In this document: in pieces, positions 1,298 to 44,078 of the stretch | Numbering within the stretch: position 1 is the stretch's first letter | Layout: each line of letters opens with the position of its first letter | Assembly: GCA_963841735.1 (NCBI GenBank) | Contig: CAWJDT010000001.1 | Location: forward strand, 1,568,001 to 1,632,000 | Direction: 5' to 3' | DNA: 64,000 bases | From: an uncultured Actinomycetes bacterium | Lineage (GTDB): Bacteria > Actinomycetota > Thermoleophilia > RBG-16-64-13 | Made by a program: the position numbers and the translations under genes | The notes under the pieces: generated by a model | What the model was told of the DNA's origin: nothing | What the model saw: only the letters and a program-made list of their open reading frames with translations | Database searches by the model: none

Positions 1298-1866
1298 CAC
1301 CAGGAAGTAGCTGGCCTGGGCCACCACCGGGGCGATCTTGGCGAGCTTGCTCTCGAAGCACACGCACTCGTAGAGGCCGTAGGCGTCTTCTAGGGTGAGG
1401 AACATCGTCCTTTTCCCCGAGCGCATCCAGGGGTTCTGGGCCCGTTCATAGACGCCGGCCACCGTAACCGGCACCTCGTCGCCCATACTGGGGAGTTCGT
1501 AGCTCATGCGCACGCCCATGCGGCGGAGTTCCTCCTCATATAGAGAGAGGGGATGGCAGGCAACCGTGAGTCCCAGGAGTTCGAGTTCGGAGCGGACCTT
1601 GTCTTCCAGGCTCCAGCGGCGCTCCAGGCCCGCGCGGCTGGGCGGGGAAAAAAACGCCCGCAGTTGGCCGCGCCTCCCTCCGGACGACCCGGCCAGTGCC
1701 TCCAGACGATCATGAAGAAGTGGCAGTCTCCAGAGCAGTTCGGTGCGGTCGGGCTCCAGGGAGTCGAAGGCTCCCACCCGGATGAGGTTCTCGGCCACGG
1801 GGCAGTCGATGCGGGTGCGCAGGTAGAAGTCCTCGAAGCTGGTGAAGGGGCCGTGGCGGCGCTCCT
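1298..1866 (-). pseudogene. dnaE2: dnaE2 internal/3' fragment, copy A
   Basis: Colinear with 10513-11081 with mostly synonymous differences. Cut by IS21 on the left and by the cassette junction GCTCCT|AGAC on the right. Confidence 0.92.
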
Positions 1867-1900
1867 AGACGGTTTGACCGCAGCCGCCTCGCCAGGAAGG

Positions 1901-1930
1901 TTGACAGGCACAAGCCGGGTCTGATAGCGT
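1901..1930 (+). promoter_or_regulatory. sigma70-type promoter of cassette 1
   Basis: TTGACA-N18-TAGCGT with an extended TG, about 35 bp inside the junction. Confidence 0.55.
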
Positions 1931-2183
1931 TCGACGCCTTGCACCAGTCGTAACGTCGGATGGGTTGGGACCCATCGGGGGGGTGACGAATTGGGTGGTC
2001 GCGGCCTCATACCTCAGTCTCACCTCAGCTCCTGTGTCTGCGGGCTACGTCCCGCCTTCACTCCCCCGGACTATGTCTCGTCGGTCGACGCGCATCGCGA
2101 CGGTTTCTGGTACTGAAGGGGGGCGCCCACAGCAACGTAGTTGCCCATTCCAGCAAGGGGAAGCGCTTCAAAGGGGTAGACGC

Positions 2184-4334
2184 ATGTCGAGACGTCGAAG
2201 AACGTTCAGCTTCATAGTTGTTGCCCTCTTGCTTTTCTGTACGGCAGTTCTCCTTGACAGCCGATCCGAAGCGGCCGCCACTATCGACGAGGTGCAGCCA
2301 ACGCACGACGCCCAGTGGATCACAGAGAGTGAACCTGCGGTGGTGCAGGCGGCAAGAGTTCGTGAGCTCTCGGAGCTGAGAACCGACAGGTCCAAGACCT
2401 TCGAGCTGGCTGATGGGCAAAGAGAATGGGTGGGCTACGGAGAGGCGGTTCACTACCGAGATGCGAGTGGCGCGTACCAGGACATCGACGACAGCATTGT
2501 GACTGATGCCAAGCAGATTGACGGAAGCAGCTATTCCTTTAGGAACGGAGCCAACGCCTTCACCGCTCGGTTCGGGGCGGATGCAGCCGATCCCCGGCTT
2601 ATCATGATTGAGTACCAGGGCGCTTCCATCGCCTTCGGTCCGGCTGGTGCGAAGGCCTCCGTCGCGACAGAGACGGCTGACGTCAAGAGCGAGGCCCTCG
2701 CCGACATGACCTACGGAGAGAACCTGGTCGGGTATCCAGAGGTCTACCCGGGAATCGATCTCTTCTACGAGCTCAAGACATACGGGGTCAAGGAATACCT
2801 CACGTTGCGGCACCAGACCACCTCAAACGAGTTCACTTTCAATCTGATTCTGAAAGGGCTCACCCCGAAAGAAGCCGATGGCCGCATCACCTTCGTGAAC
2901 GACCAGGGCGAGACTCTCTTCTGGTTGGGCGAGCCTGTGGCGGTGGACGAGGCCGGGGTGGCAACCAAGGATGTTGCCTACACGATCTCCGGCAAAGGAA
3001 GCGAGTACAAACTCACGGTCAAGGTGTCACAGACCTATCTCGATGACGCCGAACGCGTCTATCCGGTGATCGTGGATCCGGACTTCCTGATCACTGGGAA
3101 CGCCGATACCTATGACACATACGTGAGTTCGCGGTATCCCGATTCCATATACACGTACAACACCTACCTGAGGACTGGCAGGGACAGCGACTACTACACA
3201 AGAAGGACCTATCTCAGGTTCGACTTGAGCGATGCATACGGCATCGGGTCGGACAATGTCACGGGTGCCTACATCCGTCTGGAGAAGTACAGCGGAGCAA
3301 CCCCGGCGATAACCGCGTATCGCAATACCGGCAGTTGGTCTTCGGGGACAGTCACCTGGAACAATCGGCCATCCTATACCACCAGCGAATGCTCGACCAC
3401 TGCATACAACGATAGTGGCGCCTGGTGGCGCATGTACAACCTCACAGTGGTGAAGAAGTGGCTGAATGGGACATATCCCCAGTGGGGGTGGATGATCAAG
3501 GACGCCGCGGATTTGTCTGGAACGACCCAGTGGACCACCTTCTACGCCTGCGATGCCCCGTCGCCCCACAAGCCCGAGCTCCACATCCAGTACAACCTAA
3601 GTCCGATAGCCGCTGCTTTTGGCTACAACGTGGACGGGCCGGGACAAGATCCGAATCCTGACATCCACACTTGGTACGCAGCACAAGACGCGGCTTCTTG
3701 CATGGCGGGTGTGGGGTACAGCGCCCAGGCCTACAAGAACTACAGCGCCTACACTCTGTACAACAGCTTTGGCCCAGACGCAATCTGGTACTGGGCGTTT
3801 CACGGTGGCGTAGATGGGGGCTGGCTCACAGCAAAGAAGTGCGTAGACGATCCCCCGTACGTTGCGAATTAGGTGCAGTATCTTGAGGCATTGCCTAACC
3901 ACGCCAACACCCCGGGAGCTGATTCGAACACCAACGGAGCTCACTTCTATCTGAACAACCTGAATGCAGCTACGGCCACAAGGACTCTCTTGGCAGTCTT
4001 TCAAGGATGCTACACAGGACTGTACAGGGTCGGCCACAACGGCGACCGGAACTACAACTTGTGTGGTGTGGTGGTATTGAAGGGCGTCGATTGCTCCATC
4101 GGTTTCCAAGATGAGATAAGTGCAAAGGTGAATGACGACAACAACCCCACGCGGTATTGGGCCGACTGCTTCTTCAGTTCTCTAGCCGCCAATGACTTGG
4201 GAGTATCCGACGCCGCGGCATGGGCATCCTGGGCGTTTATTGATCACTATGGCGACTTCGGAGGGTATGACTCCTACATCATATTCGGCGACTACAATCT
4301 GAAGATCCTGCCGCAGCGCTACGGAGGGGGCTAG
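2184..4334 (+). CDS. Secreted DNRLRE-like scaffold protein with a C-terminal clan-CD (caspase/gingipain-like) domain; in-frame TAG at 3870-3872
   Basis: Signal peptide; ELRTDRSKTF and YPVIVDP motifs as in Rhs/WapA-like N-termini; DTYVSS...RRTYLRFDL...VTWNNRP...PELHIQY. YWAFHGG lies before the TAG and VFQGCYTG after it; ORF 3873..4334 continues in the same frame. Confidence 0.7.
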
Positions 4335-4405
4335 GCCGTCTTCCCGGTGGAGACCGAGCTTGATGGCAGTGTGATTGAGGGTACCGATAGCGATTGGAGA
4401 AGACG

Positions 4406-4873
4406 ATGAGGAGAACAAAGCTCAACATTCTGGTGGTTGCTCTTGCCGTCCTCTTGATTGGTGGCTTGGTCGCCGGTGTCATCCTAGCCAGGACAGCCGC
4501 CGTCGTTGCCCAGCCCGACCTCCTCGCGGTTGCCGGGAAGCAACTGCAGACGGCTCTGGGAATCCCGGAGCAGGTGGTAAGCGTTTCCACCTCTCAGAAC
4601 CCCGCGCTTCCGGGCACAGATACTGTTCTCCAATGGGATGGTGGCCGTGCCTGGGTCAATAGCGATACGGGTGCAATTGTGGGACTGCTTCAGGAGCGAA
4701 CGGAAGGCGACAACAAAGCCCCCTTCCTGGAAGACTCGCAACTGGCCGAAGCGGCAGCCAGCTTCCTCGCAAGTGTGGGGTGGGATGACATTGCTCTCGC
4801 TGCCGCTGGCTTCAGGGGCGGGCGTGGGCTCGACGGCATGGAGGTCAGACTCGGCAGTCGGCCGTTGTTGTAG
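4406..4873 (+). CDS. Membrane-anchored/secreted hypothetical protein (possibly C-terminally truncated)
   Basis: N-terminal hydrophobic helix; GGAG SD; directly downstream of the effector-like gene. Confidence 0.6.
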   Translation: MRRTKLNILVVALAVLLIGGLVAGVILARTAAVVAQPDLLAVAGKQLQTALGIPEQVVSVSTSQNPALPGTDTVLQWDGGRAWVNSDTGAIVGLLQERTEGDNKAPFLEDSQLAEAAASFLASVGWDDIALAAAGFRGGRGLDGMEVRLGSRPLL

Positions 4874-4909
4874 GAAGCACCGCATCCTCTTGTTGCGAAG
4901 GGTGCACAA

Positions 4910-5325
4910 ATGAGGTATCCGAGACTGTCTCAGGCTTTGGGCGTTGTCTTCTGCCTTGTTGCGCTTGGGATTGCAGGCGGCTGCTCGCACGGGAGTGTTC
5001 CAGCCGACCAAGACGGCGGGGACTCGTCATCAAGCGCATCTGGTTCGGTCCCACCCCGTATGCCCGATCCGATCACTACTCGTTGGCCGCTCGGGCTCGA
5101 GAACGTGGTGGCCGCCCAGGGAGACCAGCTGTGTGTCGTTGACGCCCAAGGGCTCGTATTCCGCGAACGGAACCCCCCGCTCACAGTCATGGCGCGGGAC
5201 GAACAATCGGCTACGTTCAGCTATGCTCTGAGCAACAACGGAAAGTACATCGCCTACCTTGCCACACGCGGGGAACTGCTTGTGCGGGCAACAGCTACTG
5301 GGCGACAGACTGGGTCGGTGCCGAT
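4910..5325 (+). pseudogene. Lipoprotein with a TolB-like propeller start, truncated by dnaE2 copy B
   Basis: Lipobox IAGGC; ALSNNGKYIAY repeat; the frame runs into dnaE2-homologous sequence at 5326. Confidence 0.7.
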
Positions 5326-7132
5326 TAGGCGTCCTCTAGGGTGAGGAACATCGTCCTTTTCCCCGAGCGCATCCAGGGGTTCTGGGCCCGCTCGTAGACG
5401 CCGGCCACCGTCACCGGCACCTCGTCTCCCAGAGCTCGTGTCGGAATGACGCTTCGCCGCTAGGACGCGATCGGCGCGGGTGAGGCAAGGACGCAGGGAG
5501 CGTTCGTAGCGGAGCTACGGGCGCGACTGAGGACGATGGATCACACCGCCCAGTGCGAGCTCGGCGGCCAAGGCTTCGTTTCGACACGAGCTCAAAGCCG
5601 GGGAGCTCGTAGCTCATGCGCACGCCCATGCGGCGGAGTTCCTCCTCATATAGAGAGAGGGGATGGCAGCTCACCGTGAGTCCCAGGAGTTCGAGTTCGG
5701 AGCGGACCTTGTCCTCGAGGCTCCACCGGCGCTCTAGGCCCGCGCGGCTGGGCGGGGAAAAGAATGCCCGCAGTTGGCCGCGCCTCCCTCCGGACGACCC
5801 GGCCAGCGCCTCGAGGCGATCATGAAGAAGTGGCAGTCTCCAGAGCAGTTCGGTGCGGTCGGGCTCCAGCGAGTCGAAGGCCCCCACCCGGATGAGGTTC
5901 TCGGCCACCGGGCAGTCGATGCGGGTGCGCAGGTAGAAGTCCTCGAAGGATGTGAAGGGGCCGTGGCGGCGCTCCTGTTCGATGCGGTCGAGGGAGCGGT
6001 CGCCCATCTGCTTGAGGTACTTGAACCCCACCCGCAGGGCCCGGCCGGCGTCGGGGGCGATGCCGGCGCTGGGGGCGAGGCAGGCGCCCGGCTCCACGCC
6101 GCCGCGGGCGCGGGGCGCGCGGGGGAGGGTGAGGTCGCCGGGGTCGGGGGCGGCGCCCCGTGGGCGCGCCGCCTCGGCCGGCGGTAGCTCACCACCCGGT
6201 GTCAGACTGACGGCCGGTGGGGCGGCGCTCCCGGTCGAAACAGCGCCAGATTTCGCATCATCCCCACGGTGATCGTCGGCGGAAAGCTGCTGCTCCAGCG
6301 CCACCCGCAGGGCCTCGGCATAGGCCGACTCGCCCTCCTGCTCGGCGGCCAGCTCGGCCAGGTCGGCCTCGGTGAGGCCCCAGTGGTGCTCGGCGGTCCA
6401 GGCCTGGGCGAAGGGGTCGTAGGGGGCTTGCGCCCCGGGGGTGTGCGGCGCCGCTCCGGAGGTGTCCCAAACGGTCGGGGGTTCGGTGTCTTCCACGGTA
6501 AAGCCGCGCCCCGAAAGGTTGATGTCAAGGGGTCTAACCTCCAGCCCGAAGCGCCGGGCATCGTTCAGCACCGTTCTTGGGGTGTAGAAGCCCATGGGGT
6601 AGTTGTTCAGCACCGAGCACAGGAACTCGGCCGGGTAGTAGGCCTTGAGGTAGGCGGTGGCGTAGGCGATGACGGCGAAGCACACCGAGTGGCTCTTGTT
6701 GAACCCGTAGGCGGCGAAGCCCTCCAGCTGGCGGAAGACCTCGCGGGCGGCGTCGGGGGGCACTCCCTGGGCGATGGCGCCGGCGATGAAGGTCTCGCCG
6801 ATCTTGGCCATCTCCTCCCGGCTGCGGTCGCGGGTCATGGCGCGGCGGAGGGAGTCGGCGTCGGCCAGGTCGAACCCGGCCACCGACTGGGCTATGCGCA
6901 GCACCTGCTCCTGGTAGAGGATCACCCCGTAGGTATCGGCCACGGCCTCGGCCATGGCGGGGTGGGGGAGGACGACAGGCTCCAGGCCCCAGCGGCGGTC
7001 GATGAAGGGGCCGATCATCTCGGCCTCCAGCGGTCCGGGGCGGTAGAGGGCGATGGCGGCGATGACGTCGTCGAAGTCCCGCTCCTGCAGACGGCTGGCG
7101 AGGTTGCGCTGGCCGGCCGACTCCAGTTGGAA
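5326..7132 (-). pseudogene. dnaE2: dnaE2 internal fragment, copy B (contains a MITE)
   Basis: Colinear with 10595-12276 (TYGVILYQEQV, FAAYGFNKSH). Its low-complexity linker differs from that of the full gene. Confidence 0.93.
5432..5593. mobile_element. 162-bp MITE-like insertion
   Basis: Absent from copy A and the full gene. Terminal inverted repeats GAGCTCGTGTCGGAA / TTTCGACACGAGCTC (14 of 15 match). Confidence 0.85.
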
Positions 7133-7539
7133 GTCTGGTGCATCACGCTACTTTCTTGCGACGTGGCTGCACTGTGTTTGCCGGCGGAGTCCTGTGCTCG
7201 CCGAGGTCCACTCTTCTGGCAATCGGACGCATGGCGCGAGAAGGATCCTCGCAAATTGCGGGTTTCGTGCAGGAGGAGCTGTCGAGAATGGCACCATTCG
7301 GTAGGAGCCGGACATTTGTATGAGTAGGAGCGATGAGGTGCAAGGGGCCTCACCATGCACGCCGCAAACACTGATGGAGGGGCCTATCGAGTCTTCGGTC
7401 TGAACTCATCGGGGGGCCAGAGATGAGAGGCCCACCTTGACAACACAACAACGAAGCCTTGATGCGGGTTGTGCAATGACGGTAGCGGTTTTGAACGCAC
7501 TTTGTGTTTGACCCCATGCCAACAAACGGAGGAGGGACG

Positions 7540-8943
7540 ATGAACACTAGGCGACTCGCGGTCACAGCACTCGTAGTCGCAATGTCATTGCTGGTGCTCT
7601 TCAGCTCGATAGCCCTGGCGGCAGATGACGCATATCCGGCTGGCTATGAAGTGAGACTGCCAGCCATAACCGACAGCGCGCTTGACTATTCGGCGGTCAC
7701 GACGGTCATAGCGGGCTACTTCACGACCTACTACCGAAGCATAGAGCAATTGGCCGTAGCGCCGGAACTCGCCGACTACATCATCGATAACGACGAGACC
7801 CACTTGTACACTTGCGCCTTGCAGTATTCGATTGACTGGCGCAAGGCGTCCGGCCCTGACCTCGCCGGCATAGTGGATACCAAGGTGGAACGTGTCGACA
7901 TCAAGTACGCAAAGCAGAGCAGCGATCGGCCGCTTGAGGTAGTGGCAGCTGTGGGGGTCGGCTTTCGTTATCTTGCCGATCCTTCGCAAACAAGGGCCAG
8001 GGCAGAGCTTCTGTGGGAAATTGGGATAGATACGATAGACGGCGACCTTAGGATAGCGAGCCTCAACTCGGAAGCCAGCGACTATCGCTGGCGGAAGGCA
8101 GAAGTTGAAGAGAAGCTCAGGAGCGTCGATAACGCGGCGTATACGAAGACCGATGCAATCGACGAGCTGTATGCAGAGCTTCACTCTCAGATCAGTTCAC
8201 ACGTTGTCGGGCCCACAGAGGTACCGACCCCTGGTGAGGATACATCTGCAGAAGAAGAGGACAAGGCGGCTGCCGTAGCCGCGAGCCCGTCCATCATGAT
8301 GTATTCGCGGCCTTACGACGGGTATAAGGCAGCCTATTATGGCAGATGCAAAGGAGACAGCGCAGGAACGGGGATATTCCGCAACATGCACGACTGTGGT
8401 GGCTACGACTGTACCAACTTTGTGTCTCAGTGCATCTGGGCTGGCTACGGTGGAACCCAGAACTATGACATTACCACTCAGCAAGGGATGGCTGCGTGTG
8501 CCCAGTTGGCCCGACAGGACTACAGACAGATCCGATACAACCAGGCCGACCCCTGGTACGGGCGTAGCGTACTCAGTCCCCCCACGTATCCAGCACAGGA
8601 CTGGATATCAGTAGACTACCTATATGGCCATATACAAACGGACTCCATGGGACCCCGAGGCACGCACCACAACAATCACAATCTCTATAACAGCTCCATA
8701 GGCCAGAGTCTGGCGGTGTACGTGGGTCATGTTATTCAAATTGACCATGCGGCTTATGCCGCCCCGTATTATCACTCGATGATGGTGGTTTCTAGCTGGG
8801 GCACCCTGTCGAATCCCTATGCCATCTATGTGGCACAGCACGATGGCAACTATTCCTTTCGTCAGTTTTATGACGCTATGTACGAAAACAACTGTTGGTA
8901 CGCACGAACTATCAGGTTTACAAGCGGTTCGTTCAACGAGTAG
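7540..8943 (+). CDS. Secreted putative amidase (amidase_6-like) protein
   Basis: Signal peptide; GGYDCTNFVSQCIWAG, YYHSMMV and AQH motifs; GGAGG SD. Confidence 0.8.
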   Translation: MNTRRLAVTALVVAMSLLVLFSSIALAADDAYPAGYEVRLPAITDSALDYSAVTTVIAGYFTTYYRSIEQLAVAPELADYIIDNDETHLYTCALQYSIDWRKASGPDLAGIVDTKVERVDIKYAKQSSDRPLEVVAAVGVGFRYLADPSQTRARAELLWEIGIDTIDGDLRIASLNSEASDYRWRKAEVEEKLRSVDNAAYTKTDAIDELYAELHSQISSHVVGPTEVPTPGEDTSAEEEDKAAAVAASPSIMMYSRPYDGYKAAYYGRCKGDSAGTGIFRNMHDCGGYDCTNFVSQCIWAGYGGTQNYDITTQQGMAACAQLARQDYRQIRYNQADPWYGRSVLSPPTYPAQDWISVDYLYGHIQTDSMGPRGTHHNNHNLYNSSIGQSLAVYVGHVIQIDHAAYAAPYYHSMMVVSSWGTLSNPYAIYVAQHDGNYSFRQFYDAMYENNCWYARTIRFTSGSFNE

Positions 8944-9008
8944 TTCGGACAGCCGACGCGGGGGCGCATGTTGCTACATGCGCTCCCGCATCATCATGCG
9001 AGGTGGTA

Positions 9009-10082
9009 ATGAAGAGGGTTAGCGCAGTTGTCCTGAGCATCGGCGTTTTGTGCGCGTATCTGGTCGGCTGTACAGGAGCGGAAGGGGCAGTGACCAGCAG
9101 TGGCTTCTCGGCTACCGCAGAGACGGCGATAGGACCTGAGACGGGCACTGAGACCGGGGTGGCGAGCTTTGTCTGGCGACCAGACGCGAAGCAGGGATAC
9201 GGTTCAGACGTTGCCAATAGACGGGCCTACGGAAACCTCGATGGCGGCGACGGGATGCTCTACTTTCGGGCCTACAATGGCCGTGAGTCTCCGCTTTGCT
9301 CGCTGTTCTCACTTGATGAGGCAACTGGCGAGACCAAGGAGTTGGCAGACGATTGCTACGGCATGGTGAATCTTGCCGGGGACTGCGTCTTCTACATAGG
9401 TGAGGTGAGTGAAGGGGTCTTTTGCTACAACACACAGACTCGGCAGGTGACCCAGGTGTATGAGGGGCCGGTGCTCAATCTGCTGGCCACAAGAGACTAT
9501 GTATATATCATCAGCCAGGCACTTGAGCTGCTAGAGCTGGAACGGGGGAGCGGGGCAATACGAGAGGTGATGAAAGGCGTCTGGTACCAGTATCTAGAGG
9601 CGATCCAGGGCGCTGTGTATTTTGCCCAGATGATGCCTGACGAGATGCACTGCAGATTGTACAGAATACCTCCCGGGGCTCCAGGTGGTGCGGATCCCGT
9701 CTATGACGGGGTCGCGTGCCCACTGAAGGTGATGGGGACGCGCGTCCTGTGCGGGGGTAGTGAGAGCGCCGAGTTGCTCGACATGGACAGCGGGCAGAAG
9801 GTGAGTCTGTATCGGTGGGATAGCGGGGCGGGTTTGCCGGCTGCCAATGGGAATGGCGTGTTCCACGTCACGATCGACGATCAGGGATATGCAGAGCTGT
9901 CCGTGTTCGACTTAGAGCGCGAGACAACGTCCACGCTGATGCCGGTACATGGTGGGGCGGTCTACTTCGTTGATGGAGAGATGTACCTCGTGAGCCCGGC
10001 GAACCTTGACATAGAGCGGGTCATTCTTGATCCGAGCGATCCGCGTACTGAGTGGGTCGTGCGGGGTGACAGTCCGAGATAG
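9009..10082 (+). CDS. Beta-propeller lipoprotein (DUF5050-like)
   Basis: Lipobox YLVGC; repeated LYF/VFY/VYF strands. Confidence 0.65.
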   Translation: MKRVSAVVLSIGVLCAYLVGCTGAEGAVTSSGFSATAETAIGPETGTETGVASFVWRPDAKQGYGSDVANRRAYGNLDGGDGMLYFRAYNGRESPLCSLFSLDEATGETKELADDCYGMVNLAGDCVFYIGEVSEGVFCYNTQTRQVTQVYEGPVLNLLATRDYVYIISQALELLELERGSGAIREVMKGVWYQYLEAIQGAVYFAQMMPDEMHCRLYRIPPGAPGGADPVYDGVACPLKVMGTRVLCGGSESAELLDMDSGQKVSLYRWDSGAGLPAANGNGVFHVTIDDQGYAELSVFDLERETTSTLMPVHGGAVYFVDGEMYLVSPANLDIERVILDPSDPRTEWVVRGDSPR

Positions 10083-10322
10083 GAGGGAGGGCCGCAAGAC
10101 CTTGAGAGGGCGCGGGGCACCGATGGACGGGGAGGGAACGAGACCTGGATAGGTGGAGGGAAGGGAATCAAACCATCCGCGGTTCCGGCGCTCGGCTCGG
10201 GAGAACTGGCCCCTGGGGATGTCGTCCACGGTGCGATCGCGCTCCAGTTCACCGAGGAGGCGGCGGTGACCGGGAAGCTCACGTTCTACGACCTACCCTC
10301 CCTCACCGTGAGCATCGAGTAG
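10083..10322 (+). pseudogene. Orphan 3' gene remnant (DUF4352-like C-terminus)
   Basis: Open frame with no start near its 5' end, ...GSGELAPGDVVHGAIALQF...LTVSIE*. Confidence 0.4.
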
Positions 10323-10347
10323 AACTAGTCGGGGGCCGCTTCTGCGG

Positions 10348-13300: not shown

Positions 13301-14842
13301 GCTGGGCGATGGCCCACGTGGCGGCGAGCGGCGACGTCGCCGGGGCGCCGGCCTCCGTCCCGACCGGCGCTGCCGGCACCGTCCCAGCCCGTCTCACGCT
13401 CCACCTTGTATGCAACATACGTTGCATTGCAATACTCATGCATCAGACCGTAGTCTGCTGGTGCCCAATCGCCCCACCAGTCCGGGGGCTCTTCCTCGGC
13501 GCCGATCAGCCCCAGCAGCGGGCTCGGCAAGAGTCTCTAGCTCAGCCTTAGACTGAAGGTAGCGGACGCCGGGCACTGGTTCCGGATAGCCCGACAGTGG
13601 CTTATCGCGGCCGGCGGCGCGGCAGACCAGGTGAAGCGCGCGATCATTCTCACCTGCGTAATGGGCATTGGTGGTAAGCACGGTGCCGACGCCGCAGGCG
13701 TCCGGCCAGGCGGGCCAGGCGCTCGCAGTAGGTGAGGCAGGAGAGGCGCCAGGGTCGGCCGTCGCGGTGGAAGCCGACGTCGAAGTCGGCGGGATTGAGC
13801 CGTCTGTGGGGCGCCGCGGGGCAGGTCGGGACGGGCGGCGCTGCGGGGCGGCGACCAGACGGCGTAGCGCGCGTCTGTGCGGGCGCCTCGGCCACAGCCG
13901 TGCGCCAAGATGCAACCAAAGTTGCAGAAGAAGCAAGTACGCAACGGGGCAGAATGGGGGGCGATGACTGTGGAGTAAGGCGGTGACTGTGGGGAAGGGG
14001 GCCGGGCAGCGCTGGGGCCCAGGGGGCGCAGGCCTTAGGGCTGCGGCCGGCTGCGTGGTGGGGCGATGCCGGAGACGGTTGCCGTCGGCGCGGATCTTCT
14101 CGTAGACAGGGGAGCCGTGCTGGCCGGCGTGGGCCTCCTGGTGAGGTTCGTAGCCGAAGTACTGCAGCTCTACATAGAGGTGGTCGCGATGCGAAGAGCG
14201 TCGCAGAGGCGGAGGAGGGCGGCGCGGGCCTCCTCGTCGCGGCCGGCGTCGACGAGGGAGCCGATCTCTCCGTGCCTGCAGCCGGTGAGGCAGATGAGGC
14301 CCTCGGCGTGAGCGGCGAGTGACTCGACGGTGACGGTGGGGGGCCGCTCCCGCTCGGGATCGGCCAGGTGGGCGGCGGAGAGCAGGCGGCATAGGTTGGC
14401 ATAGCCCTCGCGGGTCTCGGCGAGTAGCACCAGGTGGTGCGGGTCGGCCGGGGCGCCGCGGCGCGCCGGCGGCTGCGGCCGCGTTGCGCGGCGTCTGCGC
14501 CGGCCGTCGCGGCTCGGCGGTCGCCGGCACCGCGCCGCCACCGCCGGGCAGCAGCGACTCCACCCGCACCTCGGCTCCGAAGATGGGCTTGATGCCGTGC
14601 TTGGCGCAGGCCTTGGCGAAGCGCACGGCGCCGTAGAGGCCGTCGTGGTCGGTGAGAGCCAGGGCCGGCTGCCCCAGCTCGGCCGCCCGGGCGACCAACT
14701 CCTCGATCCGGCTGCCACCGTCGAGGAACGAGAAGTTCGAGTGCACGTGCAGGTGGACGAACGGGGTGGAGTCGGTCGGCGCCTGGGCCTCGGCGTCGGC
14801 TGAGGCGAAGGAGTCGCCCGGTGGAGATTGGCTATTTATCAT
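10348..14842 (-). CDS. dnaE2: Error-prone DNA polymerase III alpha DnaE2 (several apparent frameshifts between about 12570 and 14500)
   Basis: PHP motifs HLHVHSNFSFLDG and ALTDHDGLYG, RGSAGNS, catalytic PDIDVDF, HLGGFVI, KMDILGL, and OB-fold FLTLED, spread over several frames. Confidence 0.9.
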
Positions 14843-14864
14843 TACAAGGGCCGGCCCGTGTTGT

Positions 14865-14918
14865 GAACATATGTTCGTAGGAAACAGCAGTATAGCGAAC
14901 AAATGTTCGTGAGCCCAA
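14865..14918 (-). promoter_or_regulatory. dnaE2 promoter with two LexA (SOS) boxes
   Basis: GAACATATGTTC (14865-14876) and CGAACAAATGTTCG (14896-14909) flank a minus-strand TATACT -10 box (14889-14894). Confidence 0.88.
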
Positions 14919-15352: not shown

Positions 15353-15510
15353 GTCCGGAACCGCCGGCCTGGTTTCAACGGAAAGGAGCGTGTGGCAAGA
15401 AGAGAAGAATCCGAGCCCTGCTACGAAGTCGTCTCATTGCTGCGAATCTTCAGACAGTCGGTTGGTCAGGTGCAGTTGGGAGGAAATCTCCCGAATTCTT
15501 ATTTGAGGGG

Positions 15511-37059: not shown

Positions 37060-37170
37060 TCCTTCGTAGTTCTCCACCTGATCCGACGTCTATGGGTGTG
37101 CGCCGGGGTCATATTGATGGCTCCCATAGTGTGCACATGGATTCCAGGCGCGGTGTTGCCATGGGACTAG
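37060..37170 (+). pseudogene. 3' remnant of a homolog of the membrane gene at 42368-42754
   Basis: LIRRLWVCAGVILMAPIVCTWI versus LARRRWVCAGVLLVVPIVCTWI. Confidence 0.8.
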
Positions 37171-37497
37171 AGGCTGGTTTCAGCCGCCTCACTGATACCA
37201 GGCGGCGGCCGCGAGGGCGACAAGTGAGGCGTGCCGACTAGTTCCGTGGCCCACCCAAAGGACACGGACTGTCGACGGGATCGCTGCGGAGTCTAGCGCC
37301 ACCGCGAAGGCAGCGAGGCCAAGAAGGGGAAGCGAAGGCGAGCCCCAAGGGGCGCGAAGCCCATCCGAAAGAAGCCCATCCCAAGGGGGGCCGGATCCGA
37401 GATACAAGACAGGCGCTGCTAGGTGTCGATCGCGCGGTGTCGCGACACGTACTCGTGCAGAAGAGCGTTTGCCGCGAGAGCGACACCTAGCAGCGCC
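37171..37497. repeat. 327-bp structured non-coding element, copy 1
   Basis: Appears identical to 42755-43081. Multiple stems, and a 17-bp inverted repeat GGCGCTGCTAGGTGTCG/CGACACCTAGCAGCGCC. Confidence 0.9.
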
Positions 37498-38259
37498 CTA
37501 CTCTACGAAGCCCTCTATAACGTAAGTCCCCCCAGCCTTCTTCTCCCGGTGCAGCGTGATGAGCAGACGCTTCTCAGCGTCCTGGAGCAGGCTGCTGAAG
37601 CTGCGGTAGCCGTAAGCTGACTCGTTGAACGAGGGACGCTTGCGCTGCATGGTGTCTTTGACCATGGAGGCGAAGATAGGGTCCTTGTTCTCGCGGATGA
37701 GAGCCGCGATGGACTCCAGCAGCAGGTCGAAGACTTCCCTCTTCTCCTCGGGGATGTTTTTGGCCTGCGGGCTCGGTGCGGGCGGCGCCGCCTGCTTCTC
37801 CAGATCCTCGTAGAAGATGAACTCGTCGCAGTTGTCGACGAGTAGGACGGAGGTCGACTCCCTCATGCCTATGCCGATGACGTGCTTGCCGTTCTCCTTG
37901 AGCTTCGACACCAGGGGCGAGAAGTCGGAATCCCCCGACACTATGACGAAGGTGTCGATGTGCTCCTTCGACCAGGCCAGGTCCATGGCGTCTACGGCCA
38001 GCCGGATATCGGCCGAGTTCTTGCCGGTCATCTGCCGCCGCGGGATCTCGATGAGCTCGATGGCGTTCTCGTGCAGCGGCCTGGTGTATTGCTTGTACTC
38101 GTTCCAATCGGCGTAGGCCTTCTTGACGATGACCTTGCCCTTCTCGACCAGGCGTTCGAGGATCTTGTGGATGTCGAACTCACCGCGCCGGTGCTTGAAG
38201 CCTATGGCGAGGTTCTCGAAGTCGATGAAGACGGCCAGGGTGCGTTCGTGCTCGGCCAT
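37498..38259 (-). CDS. NYN (LabA/DUF88) domain protein with a C-terminal OST-HTH, copy 1
   Basis: FIDFEN, GKNSADIRLAVD, VSGDSDF, YGYRSFS. Upstream homology to copy 2 stops inside the SD. Confidence 0.9.
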   Translation of the reverse strand: MAEHERTLAVFIDFENLAIGFKHRRGEFDIHKILERLVEKGKVIVKKAYADWNEYKQYTRPLHENAIELIEIPRRQMTGKNSADIRLAVDAMDLAWSKEHIDTFVIVSGDSDFSPLVSKLKENGKHVIGIGMRESTSVLLVDNCDEFIFYEDLEKQAAPPAPSPQAKNIPEEKREVFDLLLESIAALIRENKDPIFASMVKDTMQRKRPSFNESAYGYRSFSSLLQDAEKRLLITLHREKKAGGTYVIEGFVE

Positions 38260-38408
38260 ATGGTGTCGGTGCTCTGACGTCAAGCCAACCACGTCGGGAG
38301 ACTTCTGTGGCTCTTCCTGCTGAGCGGCGGCGGATGCCGAATGTGGTTTCCGCCTACGGCATGGGACCAGGTAAACACGGTTCCACGGGCTCCTTGGCAG
38401 TATTGCAG

Positions 38409-38437
38409 TTGACACCCTCAAGACGAGTGTCTACAGT
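38409..38437 (+). promoter_or_regulatory. sigma70-type promoter of cassette 3
   Basis: TTGACA-N17-TACAGT. Confidence 0.65.
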
Positions 38438-38608
38438 GTGCACTGAAGGACGTTCTGGTTGGCACTCGGGGCCTAGAGAACGCGGGGAGGGGAAGGGGGG
38501 AAGGCGCAGTGCTTTGCCATCCACACTGACCGTATGCCAATGCCGGGGCGTGTTGTCGATGCCAATGATCGTGGCGCAATCCGCAAGGTCGCTAGAGAGG
38601 GGTGGGGT

Positions 38609-39790
38609 ATGGGCGGTCCATTGGGTCCATTGATTTCGAGTTGGCGCATTCGGGTGATGGTGGCCGTTGCAGCAGTGTCTTTGGCTCTGGTGCTTGTCGT
38701 GCTGGGAAGCGTCGCAGGCGCGGCCGACATGGGTCCTATGGAAGGGGAGTTTCCGGTGGATCCCGCGGCGCAGAACGGAGTCGTCCACCTGCGGATCGTC
38801 ACGGATCAAATCGATACCAAGAGAAGTCTGTCAAGGGATCTTTGGCTTGAGACTTCGACTGGGGATTTTCTGGCGGTGGAGCGAGAGAACTCGGAAGTTG
38901 TGTCAGTCGCGGCGTGCGATGGCACCTCGGTGAAGAAGTACGATGTCTCCTCCCACCGGGCGGGCAACTTCACGCTCGCAAAGCTGATGTTCGTGGAGCC
39001 CGATGTGGTCACGTCACAACGCGGCTCGCTTGAGGCCTTGCGGGGCTGGGTCGCGGATATGGTCAGGCAGAGCGGCGAAGCCGGCGAGTCAGCGATTGTG
39101 CACGGTCGCGCGGCTCTTGCATATGCCGATATCGGCCAGGGCCAGTCGACGCCCCGCGCAACAGAGGTGTCTCAGCTGGATCTGGTGGTGGACGAAAGCA
39201 CCGGCTTGCCTCTCCAGGCGGTCGTCCACCGGCCAAACGGCGATGTGCTCAGTCGCACGGAGTACGACTATGAGGTTGCCGGTGCCCCGGAAGGGGGATT
39301 CACCGTGGTGTTCCCGGAAGGCTACTACGTTCAGACAGACCAGGATCTCGCTCCTCCTGGGGAAGACAATCTGACTGTGGGGGAGCTGGTCCGTACGGTG
39401 AAGCACCCCGTGTACTGGGCTGGCGACAGCTTCGAAGCCCGGTCGTTGACTGGCTGCAAGGTGGCCAAATCCGGGGTTGTGAATCTCAAGTACGGAGAGG
39501 ACGGGGATTACCCCAGCAAGTCGGGTGCGTCTCCCCTGATATCGGTCTATGAGTACGTTCCCTCAGAACTCGACCCGGAGGTCCTGTCGAGCATCGAAGG
39601 ACAGCTGACGAACCCGAGAAGGGTTGAGGGGAAACGCGGCACATACACCGTGTATGACGCTGCCCTGAACGGCATGCCTATGCTCGAGGTGGTTATTGGG
39701 GATGTTCATGTTGTGATCGCGGACGTTGAAGAAGGTGATGTCGGGGTCATGGTCCGTGCTGCGGACGCCCTGTTCGAAGCTGTGGATTGA
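38609..39790 (+). CDS. Secreted/anchored hypothetical protein (LolA-like fold?)
   Basis: Signal/TM helix; LVVDESTGLPLQ, HPVYWAG. Confidence 0.65.
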   Translation: MGGPLGPLISSWRIRVMVAVAAVSLALVLVVLGSVAGAADMGPMEGEFPVDPAAQNGVVHLRIVTDQIDTKRSLSRDLWLETSTGDFLAVERENSEVVSVAACDGTSVKKYDVSSHRAGNFTLAKLMFVEPDVVTSQRGSLEALRGWVADMVRQSGEAGESAIVHGRAALAYADIGQGQSTPRATEVSQLDLVVDESTGLPLQAVVHRPNGDVLSRTEYDYEVAGAPEGGFTVVFPEGYYVQTDQDLAPPGEDNLTVGELVRTVKHPVYWAGDSFEARSLTGCKVAKSGVVNLKYGEDGDYPSKSGASPLISVYEYVPSELDPEVLSSIEGQLTNPRRVEGKRGTYTVYDAALNGMPMLEVVIGDVHVVIADVEEGDVGVMVRAADALFEAVD

Positions 39791-39977
39791 AGACAGTGGT
39801 GACGCTCGCTCAGCATATGGGGCCGACAAGAGGGTTCCATACGTGGCAACAGCGCACACATGTTCGTGTCGTTTCGCGAAACCAGCGGTGGAGCGCTGAC
39901 GTGTCACACTGGTTTGAAGTGACAAGACATGAATCCGCCGACGGAGTCGCCAACAACAGCGTCAGAAAGGCAAGCCG

Positions 39978-42272
39978 ATGCCGAGACTAAGAACGTTGAG
40001 TTTCGCAGTTTTTGCGGTGCTCATCGTATGCGCGGCGGTCCTGTTGGGCACGCTCTCGCCAGCCACCGCCACCACAGAAGAACCCGGGCAAGGGCGGGAC
40101 GGTACGGTGACGGCCGAACAGGCTCCGACCACGCCCCAAGCCGCCCGAGTGAAGGAACTGGTAGAACTCCGGACGGATAGATCAAAGATCTTTGAACTGG
40201 CCGACGGTCAGCGCGAATGGGTGGGGTACGTCGAGGCGGTTCACTACAAAGATGCAGGCGGAGCATTCAAGGAGATAGACAATGGCATCGTCAGTGAGAA
40301 CAAGCAGGTCGACGGCGTCGATTGGGCCTACCGGAATGCTGCGAACGCCTATACAGTGAGATTCGCGCTGAATGGCGATGCGTCGCACCTTGTGAGTATC
40401 GAAGCACAGGGCAAGTCGATTTCCTTTGGTCCTCTCGGGACCCGAACGTCGGATGTGGCAAAGACAGCGGAGTTGGCCAGTAAGGTGCTGTCAGAGGAAA
40501 CGTACGGCGAGAGCGTGATCACGTATCGAGACTCCCTCCCGGGGATCGATCTCGTTTACCAGCCCCGGACCTACGGCGTCAAGGAATACATCGTCCTAAG
40601 ACAACCAGGAACCCAAGACGAGTATACCTTCAACCTGATTCTGAAAGGCCTGAGCGTGAAACAGGCCGACGGACAAGTGTCTTTCGTCGATAGCGAGGGC
40701 AAGACAGTCTTTGTGTTGGGTGACCCGGTGGCTTTCGACGACGCTGAGGCTTGGACGAACGACGTGACCTACCGTGTGGAGGAGAGCGGGGGCACCTGCC
40801 AAGTCACCATCATCATGCCGCGCGCGTATCTGGACGACCCTGCCCGGGTGTACCCGGTGGTGATCGACCCTGAGATCATGTACCCGTCGCCCACCGCAGA
40901 TACCTACGTTGCCTCGAATCCAAACTACGATGATACGAACTTCTCCAGTTCGTCGTACCTGCGGACCGGTCGGGATACCCCCTACTCAATCAGAAGGAGT
41001 TTCCTCAAGTTCGACCAGGTGGACAACCTGCCAATAAGCGGCGACCAAGTCACGGACGCTTACATAAGGATCCAAGAATACAGCCGGGGTACCAGCGCTC
41101 CTACCATCAACGCTTGGTATTCCTTGGTCCCCTATGCCATCACGACCATGACCTGGAATGGGACGGCACCTGGCACCCCGACGCCTCACTGGGACGGCGG
41201 TTCGACTGACGACTTTGGGAGTCCGCAGTCTACTCTAGGGAGCCAGAGTGGGACCTGGTGGACAATGCATGTCACGACGCCGGTCCAGTACTGGCTCAAC
41301 GGGACCTATCCCAACCACGGCTGGATGATAAAGGACACGACCGAGAACAACACGAGTCACTGGACCACGTTCTACGCCTCAAATGCCGGGTCTCCCCATA
41401 TGCCCGAACTGCATGTCGTGTACACGCCATCAGTTTACCCCAGCACATACCTGGCCTCTCTCCATTTCGATGGGCCGGACTGGGGGGACGGGGGGGAAAA
41501 GACATTCCCCATGCAGGGGAGTGGGACAGTGGGCACCGATGCATATCCGCGGCTGATCAAGACTGACGTCGACTACAACGGTGATGGCTACGTGGACGTC
41601 GAGGAAGCCATACAAATGTACGTGCCATGGGCGACAGGTTCAGGCATATATGGAACTACCAGAGATGGGCACACTATCTCGCAGTATGCGACCGTCAAGG
41701 CTGATCAGAGACCAGCTGTCTACTGGCAACAGAGGGCTGTGACGGCCGCCGGCCCATCGTGGACGGTGTATCAGTATTGGCTCTACTATCCTGATAACGA
41801 CTGGGCAAACAACCACGAACACGACTGGGAACACTACGATTTGTATTTCTGCAACGGCGTTCTCCATTCCACGAAAGTCAGTTGGCACAACACCAGCTTC
41901 CAGGATCACTGGTCCGACTGGGTCCTGAACGGACTGGTGGAAGATGGCACTCATCTCAAGCTCAGTGTTCAGGGTGGTTCGCACGGGATCACCGGTGCTG
42001 GCGGCGGGCTTGAGGATGGTGTCGAAATCAAGTGGACGGGCGCCGTCTACTCGCACGGCGCACGGCTCGACATGGTGGGCACGGGGGGCTGGAGGATCTT
42101 CTCCAACGACTGGTTCGCGGGAGGCATAACGGGATACTCGGAGGCAGGGTCGCACTACAACTCCTCCTACTACTACTACGACGACCCGCTGTACGGCGGT
42201 GGCGAGTGGCTCAGTGGCAATCTTGCCCCGTGGCTGCGTCCGACATACCTGGTGCCGGATGACCCGATTTGA
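39978..42272 (+). CDS. Secreted DNRLRE-like scaffold protein with a C-terminal NPP1/Vps62-like domain
   Basis: N-terminus clearly homologous to 2184-3593; C-terminal YQYWLYYPDN..NHEHDWEH...SWH...GSHG. Confidence 0.8.
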   Translation: MPRLRTLSFAVFAVLIVCAAVLLGTLSPATATTEEPGQGRDGTVTAEQAPTTPQAARVKELVELRTDRSKIFELADGQREWVGYVEAVHYKDAGGAFKEIDNGIVSENKQVDGVDWAYRNAANAYTVRFALNGDASHLVSIEAQGKSISFGPLGTRTSDVAKTAELASKVLSEETYGESVITYRDSLPGIDLVYQPRTYGVKEYIVLRQPGTQDEYTFNLILKGLSVKQADGQVSFVDSEGKTVFVLGDPVAFDDAEAWTNDVTYRVEESGGTCQVTIIMPRAYLDDPARVYPVVIDPEIMYPSPTADTYVASNPNYDDTNFSSSSYLRTGRDTPYSIRRSFLKFDQVDNLPISGDQVTDAYIRIQEYSRGTSAPTINAWYSLVPYAITTMTWNGTAPGTPTPHWDGGSTDDFGSPQSTLGSQSGTWWTMHVTTPVQYWLNGTYPNHGWMIKDTTENNTSHWTTFYASNAGSPHMPELHVVYTPSVYPSTYLASLHFDGPDWGDGGEKTFPMQGSGTVGTDAYPRLIKTDVDYNGDGYVDVEEAIQMYVPWATGSGIYGTTRDGHTISQYATVKADQRPAVYWQQRAVTAAGPSWTVYQYWLYYPDNDWANNHEHDWEHYDLYFCNGVLHSTKVSWHNTSFQDHWSDWVLNGLVEDGTHLKLSVQGGSHGITGAGGGLEDGVEIKWTGAVYSHGARLDMVGTGGWRIFSNDWFAGGITGYSEAGSHYNSSYYYYDDPLYGGGEWLSGNLAPWLRPTYLVPDDPI

Positions 42273-42367
42273 TGTGCGCCTTGTAGGCGGTGCGGATGCC
42301 GGTGCGCTGCGCGCCGGCATCCGCCGACAGGGACCTCTCTGGGACGCCCAAGTAGGTGGTCTTTCGC

Positions 42368-42754
42368 ATGGCACCTGAAGTCCACACTCCTAGGACTCCC
42401 AGCAGGATCTGGCTGGGTCGCGCTGGAGTCTTGAGCGGTGGCATCCTGCTGCCGCCGGTGCTGGTTGGGCTGAGCTGGTGGGTGGCGGGCGAGGGCTATG
42501 GCTCGCTCGCCACCATTCGTTCCGTGGCCGTGATCGGACCGGTTGTGGCCTTCTTTCACCGCGTGTTCGTATCGCTCTACTTTCCGCCCTTCTTGGTCAC
42601 GGGTTCCGTGGCTCCGGCATTCGCACTGCTTGGGCTGTACCTGCTCTTCGCCGTCGTCTACCTGGCCCGTCGTCGATGGGTGTGTGCCGGGGTCTTGTTG
42701 GTAGTCCCCATAGTGTGCACGTGGATCTTCAGCGCGGCCCTACTGGGTGACTAG
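42368..42754 (+). CDS. Small multi-TM protein (candidate immunity partner)
   Basis: AGGTGGT SD; 3-4 hydrophobic helices; follows the effector-like gene. Confidence 0.65.
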   Translation: MAPEVHTPRTPSRIWLGRAGVLSGGILLPPVLVGLSWWVAGEGYGSLATIRSVAVIGPVVAFFHRVFVSLYFPPFLVTGSVAPAFALLGLYLLFAVVYLARRRWVCAGVLLVVPIVCTWIFSAALLGD

Positions 42755-43081
42755 AGGCTGGTTTCAGCCGCCTCACTGATACCAGGCGGCGGCCGCGAGG
42801 GCGACAAGTGAGGCGTGCCGACTAGTTCCGTGGCCCACCCAAAGGACACGGACTGTCGACGGGATCGCTGCGGAGTCTAGCGCCACCGCGAAGGCAGCGA
42901 GGCCAAGAAGGGGAAGCGAAGGCGAGCCCCAAGGGGCGCGAAGCCCATCCGAAAGAAGCCCATCCCAAGGGGGGCCGGATCCGAGATACAAGACAGGCGC
43001 TGCTAGGTGTCGATCGCGCGGTGTCGCGACACGTACTCGTGCAGAAGAGCGTTTGCCGCGAGAGCGACACCTAGCAGCGCC
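42755..43081. repeat. 327-bp structured non-coding element, copy 2
   Basis: Same sequence as 37171-37497, offset 5584 bp. Confidence 0.9.
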
Positions 43082-43843
43082 CTACTCTACGAAGCCCTCT
43101 ATAACGTAAGTCCCCCCCGCCTTCTTCTCCCGATGCAAGGTTATGAGCCGCCCCTTCTCGGCATCCTGGAGCAGGCTGCTGAAGCTGCGGTACCCGTAGG
43201 CCGACTCGTTGAACGAGGGACGCTTGCGCTGCATGGTGTCCTTGACCATGGAGGCGAAGATGGGGTCCTTGTTCTCGCGGATGAGGGCGGCGATGGACTC
43301 CAACAGCAGGTCGAAGACCTCTTTCTTCTCCTCGGGGATGTCCCTCACCTGCGGGCTCGGAGGTGCCGGCGCAGCCTGCTTCTCGAGATCCTCATAGAAG
43401 ATGAACTCGTCGCAGTTGTCGACAAGCAGGGCGGAGGTCGATTCCCTCATGCCTATGCCGATGACGTGCTTGCCGTTCTCTTTGAGCTTCGATACCAGGG
43501 GCGAGAAGTCGGAGTCGCCCGACACGACCACAAAGGTGTCGACGTGCTGCTTCGACCAGGACAGGTCCATGGCGTCCACGGCCAGCCGGATGTCGGCTGA
43601 ATTCTTGCCGGTCATGACGCGCCGCGGGATCTCGATGAGCTCGATGGCATTCTCGTGCAGCGGCCGAGTGTACTGCTTGTACTCGTTCCAATCGGCGTAG
43701 GCCTTTTTGACGATGACCTTGCCCTTCTCGACGAGGCGTTCGAGGATCTTGTGGATGTCGAACTCACCGCGCCTGTGCTTGAAGCCTATGGCGAGGTTCT
43801 CAAAGTCGATGAAGACGGCCAGGGTACGTTCGTGCTCGGCCAT
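43082..43843 (-). CDS. NYN (LabA/DUF88) domain protein, copy 2 (native SD GGAAGGAG)
   Basis: 253 aa, near-identical to copy 1 with many synonymous changes. Confidence 0.92.
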   Translation of the reverse strand: MAEHERTLAVFIDFENLAIGFKHRRGEFDIHKILERLVEKGKVIVKKAYADWNEYKQYTRPLHENAIELIEIPRRVMTGKNSADIRLAVDAMDLSWSKQHVDTFVVVSGDSDFSPLVSKLKENGKHVIGIGMRESTSALLVDNCDEFIFYEDLEKQAAPAPPSPQVRDIPEEKKEVFDLLLESIAALIRENKDPIFASMVKDTMQRKRPSFNESAYGYRSFSSLLQDAEKGRLITLHREKKAGGTYVIEGFVE

Positions 43844-44078
43844 ATGGTGTCGGTGCTCCTTCCCCTAAAACATTGGCACCAGGATTTGTCTCTATGGGTG
43901 AATTCTTGCACGTTTGCTCTATTCCTGTAGTGCGGGGGGCGCGGCGGGGGAGATGGAGCGGACGAGCGCGGATCCTCATCGTTGTAGCGGTATAGTATTG
44001 TCAGGTCGGACGGCAGCTGTGGCGGCCGGACCGGCTGACATACCTGCGGTCATCTGTCATCTGTTTGGGGAGGGCGAC

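Follow-up and report, generated by a model that had tools for sequence, protein, structure and literature searches.

Stacked cassettes between diverged copies of core-gene ends in an uncultured actinobacterial genome

Mobile elements such as e14 and phage 21 in icd, the islands at tRNA genes and SCC (staphylococcal cassette chromosome) at rlmH insert into a gene at its 3' end and bring a replacement for that end. In other arrays of accessory genes no integrase is involved. Arrays of effector-immunity modules of the type VI secretion system (T6SS) in V. cholerae have been explained by sequential displacement, with homology-facilitated illegitimate recombination (HFIR) as the proposed mechanism, and have been likened to integrons; the same mechanism has been proposed for orphan arrays at loci of the Rhs/CdiA type (excerpt of PMC5361080). 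Both HFIR and single-crossover insertion-duplication are described for natural transformation (via the excerpt of PMC5361080), and merodiploids have been made by transformation (excerpt of PMC3784515). Flexible genomic islands are exchanged by homologous recombination in the flanking core genes (excerpt of PMC4033161). The present analysis concerns a window of 64,000 nucleotides from an uncultured actinobacterial genome, in which a DnaE2-type DNA polymerase gene (dnaE2) and a gene for an NYN-domain protein are each followed downstream by cassettes of unrelated genes, and each cassette is followed by a further, diverged copy of part or all of that same gene, hereafter the anchor.

These arrays share with the T6SS and Rhs arrays the apparent entry of modules beside a homology anchor, the outward displacement of older modules and the lack of an integrase. 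However, the anchor of the T6SS and Rhs arrays lies within the toxin system, whereas the anchors here are unrelated core genes, the cargo is mixed and each event would leave a long duplicate of the anchor. The likeness to insertion-duplication and HFIR lies in one-sided homology, the use of host recombination only and a direct duplication around the new DNA; those, however, are laboratory events in transformable species, whereas the present events are read from natural scars, up to six deep, in an uncultured lineage. As with e14/icd-type elements, the gene stays whole, a displaced and diverged gene end marks the far border and insertions pile up in tandem. Those elements have an integrase and a short fixed core, whereas no recombinase is found nearby here, the pieces measure 0.1-2.1 kb and the breakpoints vary. 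Similarly, flexible islands carry strain-variable cargo at a conserved core-gene hot spot and are moved by recombination in the flanks, but they are cleanly replaced without a duplicate, whereas here the flank is duplicated and the islands add up.

We favour, at a probability of roughly 0.6, repeated one-sided homologous capture, by insertion-duplication or HFIR, at hot spots for flexible islands, followed by gene conversion. Donors would most likely have been close relatives, with no recombinase taking part in the capture. A recombination model of this kind had been put forward in an earlier sequence-only reading of the window; it is still the best reading, and the observation behind it is real and larger than reported.

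Two arrays of duplicated gene ends

The window (G000:C1:1568001-1632000) belongs to a genome of 2.82 Mb in 8 contigs with 63% GC (completeness 89.7%, contamination 2.3%), here called G000, and the comparison set is its order of 61 genomes, comprising one family and 19 genera. Negative coordinates denote sequence to the left of the window, into which locus L001 extends, and 'equivalent' positions are the matching coordinates in the full-length dnaE2 gene of the window. The direct duplications of host-gene pieces at two loci, as first claimed, are confirmed by self-BLAST of the window and prove more extensive; all of the repeats listed by it are in direct orientation. Six pieces derived from dnaE2, the full gene included, span about 17 kb, and the array continues left of the window. 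Its parts, from the anchor outward, are as follows.

10348-14902, minus strand: full-length DnaE2-type polymerase gene, the anchor (Pfam DNA_pol3_finger, HHH_6 and OB fold)
10137-10347: native downstream flank of dnaE2, with a second copy at -5123..-4889
7133-10136, plus strand: cassette B, an Amidase_6 protein and a DUF5050-like lipoprotein
5326-7132, minus strand: dnaE2 piece 2, corresponding to 10595-12276, split at 5432-5599 by an insert resembling a miniature inverted-repeat transposable element (MITE)
1867-5325, plus strand: cassette A, a DNRLRE/CBM96 secreted protein and three small genes
1298-1866, minus strand: dnaE2 piece 1, corresponding to 10513-11081 (95.6% over 569 nt), its 3' end cut off by an insertion sequence of the IS21 family (IS21)
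-2508..-1615: dnaE2 piece 0, left of the window, extending to the stop codon
-3326..-3300: remnant of about 25 nt of dnaE2, beside a MITE
-5123..-4889: gene-end copy, the last 23 nt of dnaE2 and the 211-nt flank (87% over 238 columns)

The anchor is the second polymerase of the DnaE family in this genome, the canonical DnaE (about 1215 aa) being located elsewhere; its best NCBIfam match, in which only part of the protein was scored, is to error-prone DNA polymerase. Piece 2 aligns with it in two parts, 5326-5431 with 10595-10700 (96.2%) and 5600-7132 with 10705-12276 (92.8%, 1578 columns). Breakpoints in this array are equivalent to 12276 and 11081. The joint of equivalent 11081 to the region upstream of a DNRLRE gene is present twice, at pieces 0 and 1, in diverged form: the two units have the junction and the start of the cassette in common at 80% identity, and the pieces themselves differ at 24 synonymous and 5 non-synonymous sites. 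At least one copying or transfer of the module of piece and cassette as a whole must thus have taken place, and a misassembly cannot produce such a joint. Diverged pieces with a common joint further suggest that the module of piece and DNRLRE cassette existed in at least two lineages. The anchor part of this module would have been overwritten repeatedly by working alleles before both versions met in one genome. The junctions are sharp, and no common motif is visible by eye at the joints in 10 junction alignments.

The second array, at the NYN gene, holds one cassette.

42646-43858, minus strand: inner NYN unit (Pfam NYN, 3.7e-38, and OST-HTH), whose native upstream sequence continues to the right
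38275-42645, plus strand: NYN cassette, GC 59.5%
42356-42754, plus strand: 132-aa membrane protein of the NYN cassette, only the start of its gene lying inside the cassette
39978-42272, plus strand: DNRLRE/CBM96 protein of the NYN cassette
38534-39790, plus strand: 418-aa secreted or membrane protein of the NYN cassette
37062-38274, minus strand: outer NYN unit, a complete 253-codon frame with 436 nt of downstream flank and 15 nt only of upstream sequence

Self-BLAST aligns 37062-38274 with 42646-43858 in direct orientation at 92.3% over 1214 columns. The duplication of the NYN gene that had been proposed is thus real, but the outer copy is more than the fragment it was taken for, as both copies are complete 253-codon frames. 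Matches to NYN occur in 57 of the 61 genomes, and two complete side-by-side copies occur only in G000. The NYN locus of the closest relative, G053, is uninterrupted and without the cassette, its homology with G000 continuing to 43937.

The genes of the two dnaE2 cassettes are listed below; calls of secretion and of lipoproteins, here and above, were made from signal-peptide or lipoprotein-like N-termini read in the translations.

1965-3872, plus strand: DNRLRE/CBM96 secreted protein of cassette A, 635 aa (Pfam CBM96 1.3e-16; NCBIfam DNRLRE_dom 7.4e-28)
3873-4334, plus strand: small gene of cassette A, 153 aa, beginning directly after the stop of the 635-aa gene; no Pfam family
4394-4873, plus strand: small gene of cassette A, membrane-anchored by its N-terminal sequence; no Pfam family
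4910-5344, plus strand: small gene of cassette A, lipoprotein-like by its N-terminal sequence; no Pfam family
7504-8943, plus strand: secreted Amidase_6 protein of cassette B (Pfam Amidase_6 1.6e-14)
8895-10082, plus strand: DUF5050-like lipoprotein of cassette B (DUF5050 4.3e-5, below the family cut-off)

The GC content of the cassettes is 57-59.5% versus 63.1% for the genome, and cassettes A, B and NYN have no DNA in common except for one stretch of DNRLRE coding sequence (2382-2953 versus 40173-40744, 65% DNA identity). The suggestion that both loci carry a DNRLRE-like scaffold is borne out by Pfam CBM96 and NCBIfam DNRLRE matches in both large proteins, which have 47% identity across 498 N-terminal residues and, in a polymorphic architecture, unrelated C-termini. 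The DNRLRE/CBM96 proteins look like a polymorphic secreted-protein family. The N-terminal part was found in 13 of the 60 other genomes, mostly in giant proteins, and in short form only in G001 and G051. A further expectation, that other DNRLRE cassettes would be bracketed by host-gene duplications, was not supported: the three short-form cassettes of G001 and G051 occupy other loci, where no anchor repeat can be seen, and two of these three loci end near a contig end. An alignment search for DNRLRE in genome contigs gave only 4 loci, too few to judge an association with anchor repeats, and the DNRLRE protein had no pattern match in viral contigs. Homologues of the Amidase_6 protein were found in 2 of 60 other genomes of the order by six-frame search; a pattern search of genome contigs for its relatives gave 25 stretches, none of them confirmed.

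Family loci of DNRLRE in G000 are window 1965-4334 and 39978-42272, G000:C1:876833-878191 and G000:C3:5228-6451. Giant DNRLRE open frames measure 2204-2505 aa, and up to about 3175 aa in relatives. In the variable stretch behind the dnaE2 array lies a second, short open frame that is NYN-like by sequence (133 aa; L001 8904-9305, window -6096..-5695).

Divergence of the copies and recurrence of the layout

The differences between anchor copies were counted by the method of Nei and Gojobori in the frame of the working gene, and the ratio of non-synonymous to synonymous change (dN/dS) was compared with the value of about 0.5 expected for a truncated piece that decays beside a constrained gene. 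Over 211 conserved codons, piece 2 differs from the full dnaE2 gene by 18 synonymous and 0 non-synonymous changes (dN/dS 0), with a dN/dS of 0.40 in its low-complexity linker. Piece 1 shows 21 synonymous and 4 non-synonymous changes (dN/dS 0.057), and piece 0 has values of 0.04-0.12, rising to 0.15 over one 62-codon stretch. The NYN pair gives 49.5 synonymous and 15.5 non-synonymous changes (dN/dS 0.07). Similarly, synonymous changes outnumber non-synonymous ones in two further duplicated genes of G000, an oxidoreductase (30.5 versus 9.5 and 12 versus 0) and a Pyr_redox_2 gene (28.7 versus 8.3). Overall, dN/dS is 0-0.15 at five loci, the dnaE2 linker excepted. Differences that are nearly all synonymous point to pieces that come from working alleles of other lineages and not from local decay. 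Until recently, then, the pieces belonged to working genes, as alleles that diverged in different genomes. The arrays thus show the two features of insertion-duplication or HFIR, namely a direct duplication of the anchor around unrelated, lower-GC cassettes and anchor copies that are different working alleles.

Identity within the copies is mosaic. Compared with the full gene, piece 2 has 1 difference in 10705-11124, about 105 in 11125-11724 and 7 in 11725-12276, while the NYN copies have 28 differences in 120 nt, then 1 in 360 nt (42766-43125) and then about 64 in 730 nt. Tracts of 99.7-99.8% identity thus lie beside tracts of 77-91%, and overall identities are averages. The near-identical tracts would fit heteroduplex at the crossover or later gene conversion. 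A simple age gradient was considered and set aside: synonymous divergence (dS) does rise outward, from about 0.10 to 0.17 and 0.28, which is weak given the mosaic identity. In a tree of 377 nt, the four dnaE2 copies of G000 form one clade (95/99 support) that is sister to L029, and three copies of G054 form a separate clade.

Comparison with relatives agrees with the proposal that cassette number and content vary behind the same gene. A match to the 244 C-terminal residues of the polymerase was obtained in 58 of the 61 genomes, and extra 3' pieces of high identity lie on the contig of the full gene in five of the 57 other genomes that have it (G054, G011, G010, G002 and G035). G054, of the same genus, carries three extra pieces over 10 kb, with breakpoints equivalent to 12445, 12357 and 10746, and its cargo, a secreted protein without known family, differs from that of G000. 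In G011 a single piece is found 5 kb downstream, beyond a Fic/RhuM gene and a TOTE primase-helicase. Internal remnants of 94 and 96 nt lie behind an Amidase_6 homologue in G010 and behind an 11-kb island in G002, respectively, and G035 holds a piece of 0.6 kb, at a distance of about 42 kb downstream provided that its contig of 4.6 Mb is circular. Over these genomes the breakpoints span equivalent 10539 to 12445, so the contrast first drawn between variable breakpoints and fixed attachment sites also holds beyond the two seen in G000. Neither insert is present in G053, where dnaE2 is followed within 1.2 kb by higBA and a GNAT toxin pair, versus 28 kb in G000; this arrangement matches piece 0 and its higBA flank at 93% identity.

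The layout of anchor, cargo and anchor also recurs within G000, at no fewer than six loci, dnaE2 and NYN included. A genome survey of repeats of at least 150 nt with partners at most 30 kb apart gave 97 direct versus 2 inverted repeats; those of low identity are often ordinary tandem paralogues, and by our own count from the list every pair of at least 85% identity is direct. The further loci are as follows.

C1 22.7-39.2 kb: 3' end of a Type ISP restriction-methylase gene, four copies
C1 442046-442951: gene for a DHODB-type Fe-S/NAD oxidoreductase subunit, with a second copy of its 3' part 12.6 kb downstream (C1 429/442 kb)
C5 5.4/8.3 kb: copies of a Pyr_redox_2 gene with a PD40/TIG secreted protein between them
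C1 1526/1529 kb: 5' end of a DUF362 gene

With the last of these, either end of a gene may serve as an anchor. The Type ISP stretch (18-42 kb) holds AAA_13, IrrE/HTH, DUF3800 and AbiEi genes; the oxidoreductase repeat is split by a MITE, and its island includes, among others, a deaminase-HATPase gene. Across the arrays the cargo comprises toxin-antitoxin, restriction, AAA_13, TOTE and deaminase genes, that is, the usual mix of the flexible genome and not specifically secreted effectors, the class of cargo to which the sequence-only reading had tied these cassettes.

Mobile elements, recombinase genes and neighbouring features

An insertion sequence adjoins the dnaE2 array on the left and has left its mark on it.

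About -1104..1294, plus strand: IS21-family insertion sequence, starting about 1.1 kb left of the window
473-1240, plus strand: IstB of IS21 (Pfam IstB_IS21, E 4.7e-69)

IstA lies at L001:14015-15367 (NCBIfam IS21 transposase, 248.6 bits versus a cut-off of 160), its last part at 3-476 of the window. The ends of the element carry terminal AGTTGACCAC repeats, those of the right end reaching to about 1294 and abutting piece 1 at 1298, and genome self-BLAST gave no second copy. On the left it is flanked by the 5' fragment of a further DNRLRE gene (-1615..-1123), 80% identical to 1866-2338, and on the right by piece 1, which ends at a cut at equivalent 10513. These flanks are non-contiguous in every arrangement seen, so IS21 accounts for the junction at 1298, and it is probably also behind a deletion there. 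A nearby insertion sequence had been named as a possible cause of every junction; IS21 explains this one only. Likewise, the statement that the window holds no recombinase stands for tyrosine and serine recombinases near the arrays, and fails for IS21 itself.

The gap in piece 2 is a 164-nt insert (about 160 nt) with terminal inverted repeats, and piece 0 is interrupted by one of the same kind. This MITE-like family has 18 BLAST matches in G000, the query copy included, among them the copies at window 5432-5599, L001 12843-13010 and L001 11494-11654. A MITE-like copy also lies inside the dnaE2 coding region of three relatives (L013, L014 and L033, at locus positions of about 9850-10250), and in L013 a 1584-codon dnaE2 frame is open across it, the copy apparently being read in frame. 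The most active mobile element of G000 is probably a 1.6-kb repeat of 99% identity in five copies (C1:402277-403882, C1 810532, C1 1355981, C5 149991 and C6 29994), three of which adjoin a gene of the Phage_integrase family.

No tyrosine or serine recombinase gene was found near any array of G000, and Pfam and NCBIfam scans of the cassette proteins gave no recombinase domain. Phage_integrase (PF00589) has 8 matches in the genome, the sole one on C1 at 809979-810530, about 758 kb from the window, and the single Resolvase match is on C5 at 265941. An integron was rejected, as no IntI gene lies beside the array, that PF00589 gene being the nearest on C1. Inverted repeats of at least 60 nt in the window, by a general repeat scan with no attC model, are limited to one pair outside the arrays, at 24310/27152. 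An integrase-borne island with a displaced gene end was also rejected, given the lack of a nearby recombinase and breakpoints that vary (12276, 11081, 12445, 12357 and 10746). An orphan array of the Rhs/CdiA type does not fit either, the repeated pieces being dnaE2 and NYN and not a toxin constant region; a partial DNRLRE gene occurs only once, at -1615..-1123, where IS21 has reduced it to a 5' end. Simple tandem duplication was discarded because whole units are not repeated and cassettes A, B and NYN have no DNA in common beyond the 65% DNRLRE stretch; a junction and cassette start are common to units 0 and 1 only. A ComEC homologue is present in G000, and Ku was not found in this genome, which is 89.7% complete.

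Several features of the window lie outside the arrays. The inverted-repeat pair above (77 nt, 70%), the only long one in the window, is formed by the 5' ends of two facing paralogous genes, at 24310-25128 and 26284-27228, with zinc-ribbon-like CxxC motifs in their N-terminal parts. A near-perfect palindrome of 37 nt (97%) lies at 21558-21594, just 3' of a gene ending at 21519, and 55506-58295 holds two tandem pairs of genes for CoA-transferase-like subunits, with about 65% DNA identity. In 59200-63100 the open frames are all short and odd, and some resemble pieces of an isopropylmalate synthase-type gene; frame breaks may cluster here as well.

Capture and its rivals

Under one-sided capture, incoming DNA would bring the end of the anchor gene together with the cassette adjacent to it in the donor, and the host's homologous recombination would pair the anchor with its resident counterpart. 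The far end would then be joined without homology, or the DNA would enter as a circle by a single crossover; these two routes are not distinguishable by the present data. In either case the gene would stay whole, with the new cassette behind it and the displaced gene-end copy behind the cassette. Repetition would stack the cassettes, the oldest outermost, and later conversion between copies, insertions of MITE and IS21 and deletions would blur the stack. The data show the direct repeats, the varying breakpoints, the lack of a recombinase gene nearby, the descent of the pieces from working alleles, the mosaic identity and the recurrence in relatives; the single step, the direction, the vehicle and a dependence on RecA are what we infer.

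Several points weigh against one-sided capture. The clustering of the four copies of G000 in the tree means either that the donors were closer than any species representative or that the copies were homogenised in place. The divergence between pieces 0 and 1 needs extra steps of conversion by resident working alleles in separate lineages, and the absence of the last 247 nt of the gene from piece 2 is not predicted by the simple model. The supposedly restored dnaE2 gene may not be intact: its 3' 740 codons are open, and its 5' half (12606-14815) switches frame at least six times relative to an intact relative. Homopolymer runs are equal in the two halves (12 versus 10), split dnaE2 frames also occur in 9 of 19 relatives, and the breaks may be either consensus errors or real decay; they might also mark the point of crossover. 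Public sequencing runs speak neither for nor against the junctions. Each of the 10 runs listed held at most 0.06 of 968 sampled words, and four runs assembled onto 1-20000 at 90% likeness yielded short contigs over the dnaE2-like parts only, with a read depth of zero over 7338-10005 and next to none over 2002-5336. An exact scan of metagenome contigs for the shared-junction motif gave 0 matches. Finally, most of the same data fit a history in two steps, of duplication followed by an allele swap.

Such a two-step history, in which cassette insertion duplicates the gene end locally into identical copies and a later homologous recombination with conversion swaps the allele, is rather unlikely, although it comes closest to one-sided capture. 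The mosaic identity with tracts of 99.7-99.8% and the clustering of the own copies would follow from it, and a swap of the working copy subsequent to the duplication would likewise give a low dN/dS. It does not, however, explain by what mechanism duplications of 0.1-2.1 kb arise at insertion, and an allele swap is required at each of at least six loci. Further, piece 0 keeps its G053-like flank at 93%, as if anchor and neighbour had arrived or stayed together.

An assembly artefact, with alleles of co-occurring related populations strung into one contig, is less probable still, and we regard a chimeric assembly as unlikely, on indirect evidence. The divergence of the copies (dS 0.1-0.4) is typical of sister populations, and the frame breaks in dnaE2 and at about 59-63 kb suggest a noisy consensus. 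Nevertheless, an assembler would need reads that hold the joint between a cassette and the second anchor, the same layout appears in five independently assembled genomes (one on a contig of 4.6 Mb) and one junction is present twice in diverged form. In addition, all repeats are direct and stand at homologous positions.

A site-specific recombinase, now lost or acting in trans, could have formed islands in which the repeats are long attachment-site duplications; this is improbable. Elements that target a 3' end and bring a replacement for it are well known, e14 and phage 21 in icd being examples, and several pieces, in different genomes, have their start within the DnaE helix-hairpin-helix region (at residue 498 here and at about 475-521 in L017 and L044). 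Against this, the breakpoints range from equivalent 10539 to 12445 with no common motif at the joints, no integrase or resolvase gene lies near any array and one anchor is a 5' end. That the pieces are retained for a function, either as silent donor cassettes from which the polymerase linker would be varied or as independent genes for the DnaE C-terminus, is highly improbable. Near-identical flanks do surround the highly variable linker of piece 2, and some pieces of relatives are long open frames (267 aa in L044, 714 aa in G054); against this, IS21 or a MITE has broken all three of the large pieces here, and the layout is the same at unrelated anchors.

Nothing points to the dedicated, integron-like system that had been proposed; the arrays look like a by-product of ordinary recombination. 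Taken alone, the window is a well-documented case of a known process and not a new system. What is new is how deep the stack goes, how many loci of a single genome show the layout and that the layout recurs at one gene across genera. A broader view, which we put forward only tentatively, is that one-sided capture serves as a regular route by which genes for conflict and for the cell surface are gained in this family, giving ordered, integrase-free stacks where core genes end, in at least five genera and six deep at the DnaE2-type gene. Only anchors too diverged for deletion would survive, and conversion tracts would let cassettes loop out as circles that bear the anchor.

If the arrays are real, the model of sequential displacement would extend from toxin loci to ordinary core genes, and a diverged direct repeat of a gene end with synonymous differences only would be a simple signature of recently gained cargo in metagenomes. 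The arrays would also form a readable record of the gain of accessory genes by the cell's own recombination, without nearby integrases, and would reveal which core genes act as landing sites, how deep the stacks are and that the donors were close relatives.

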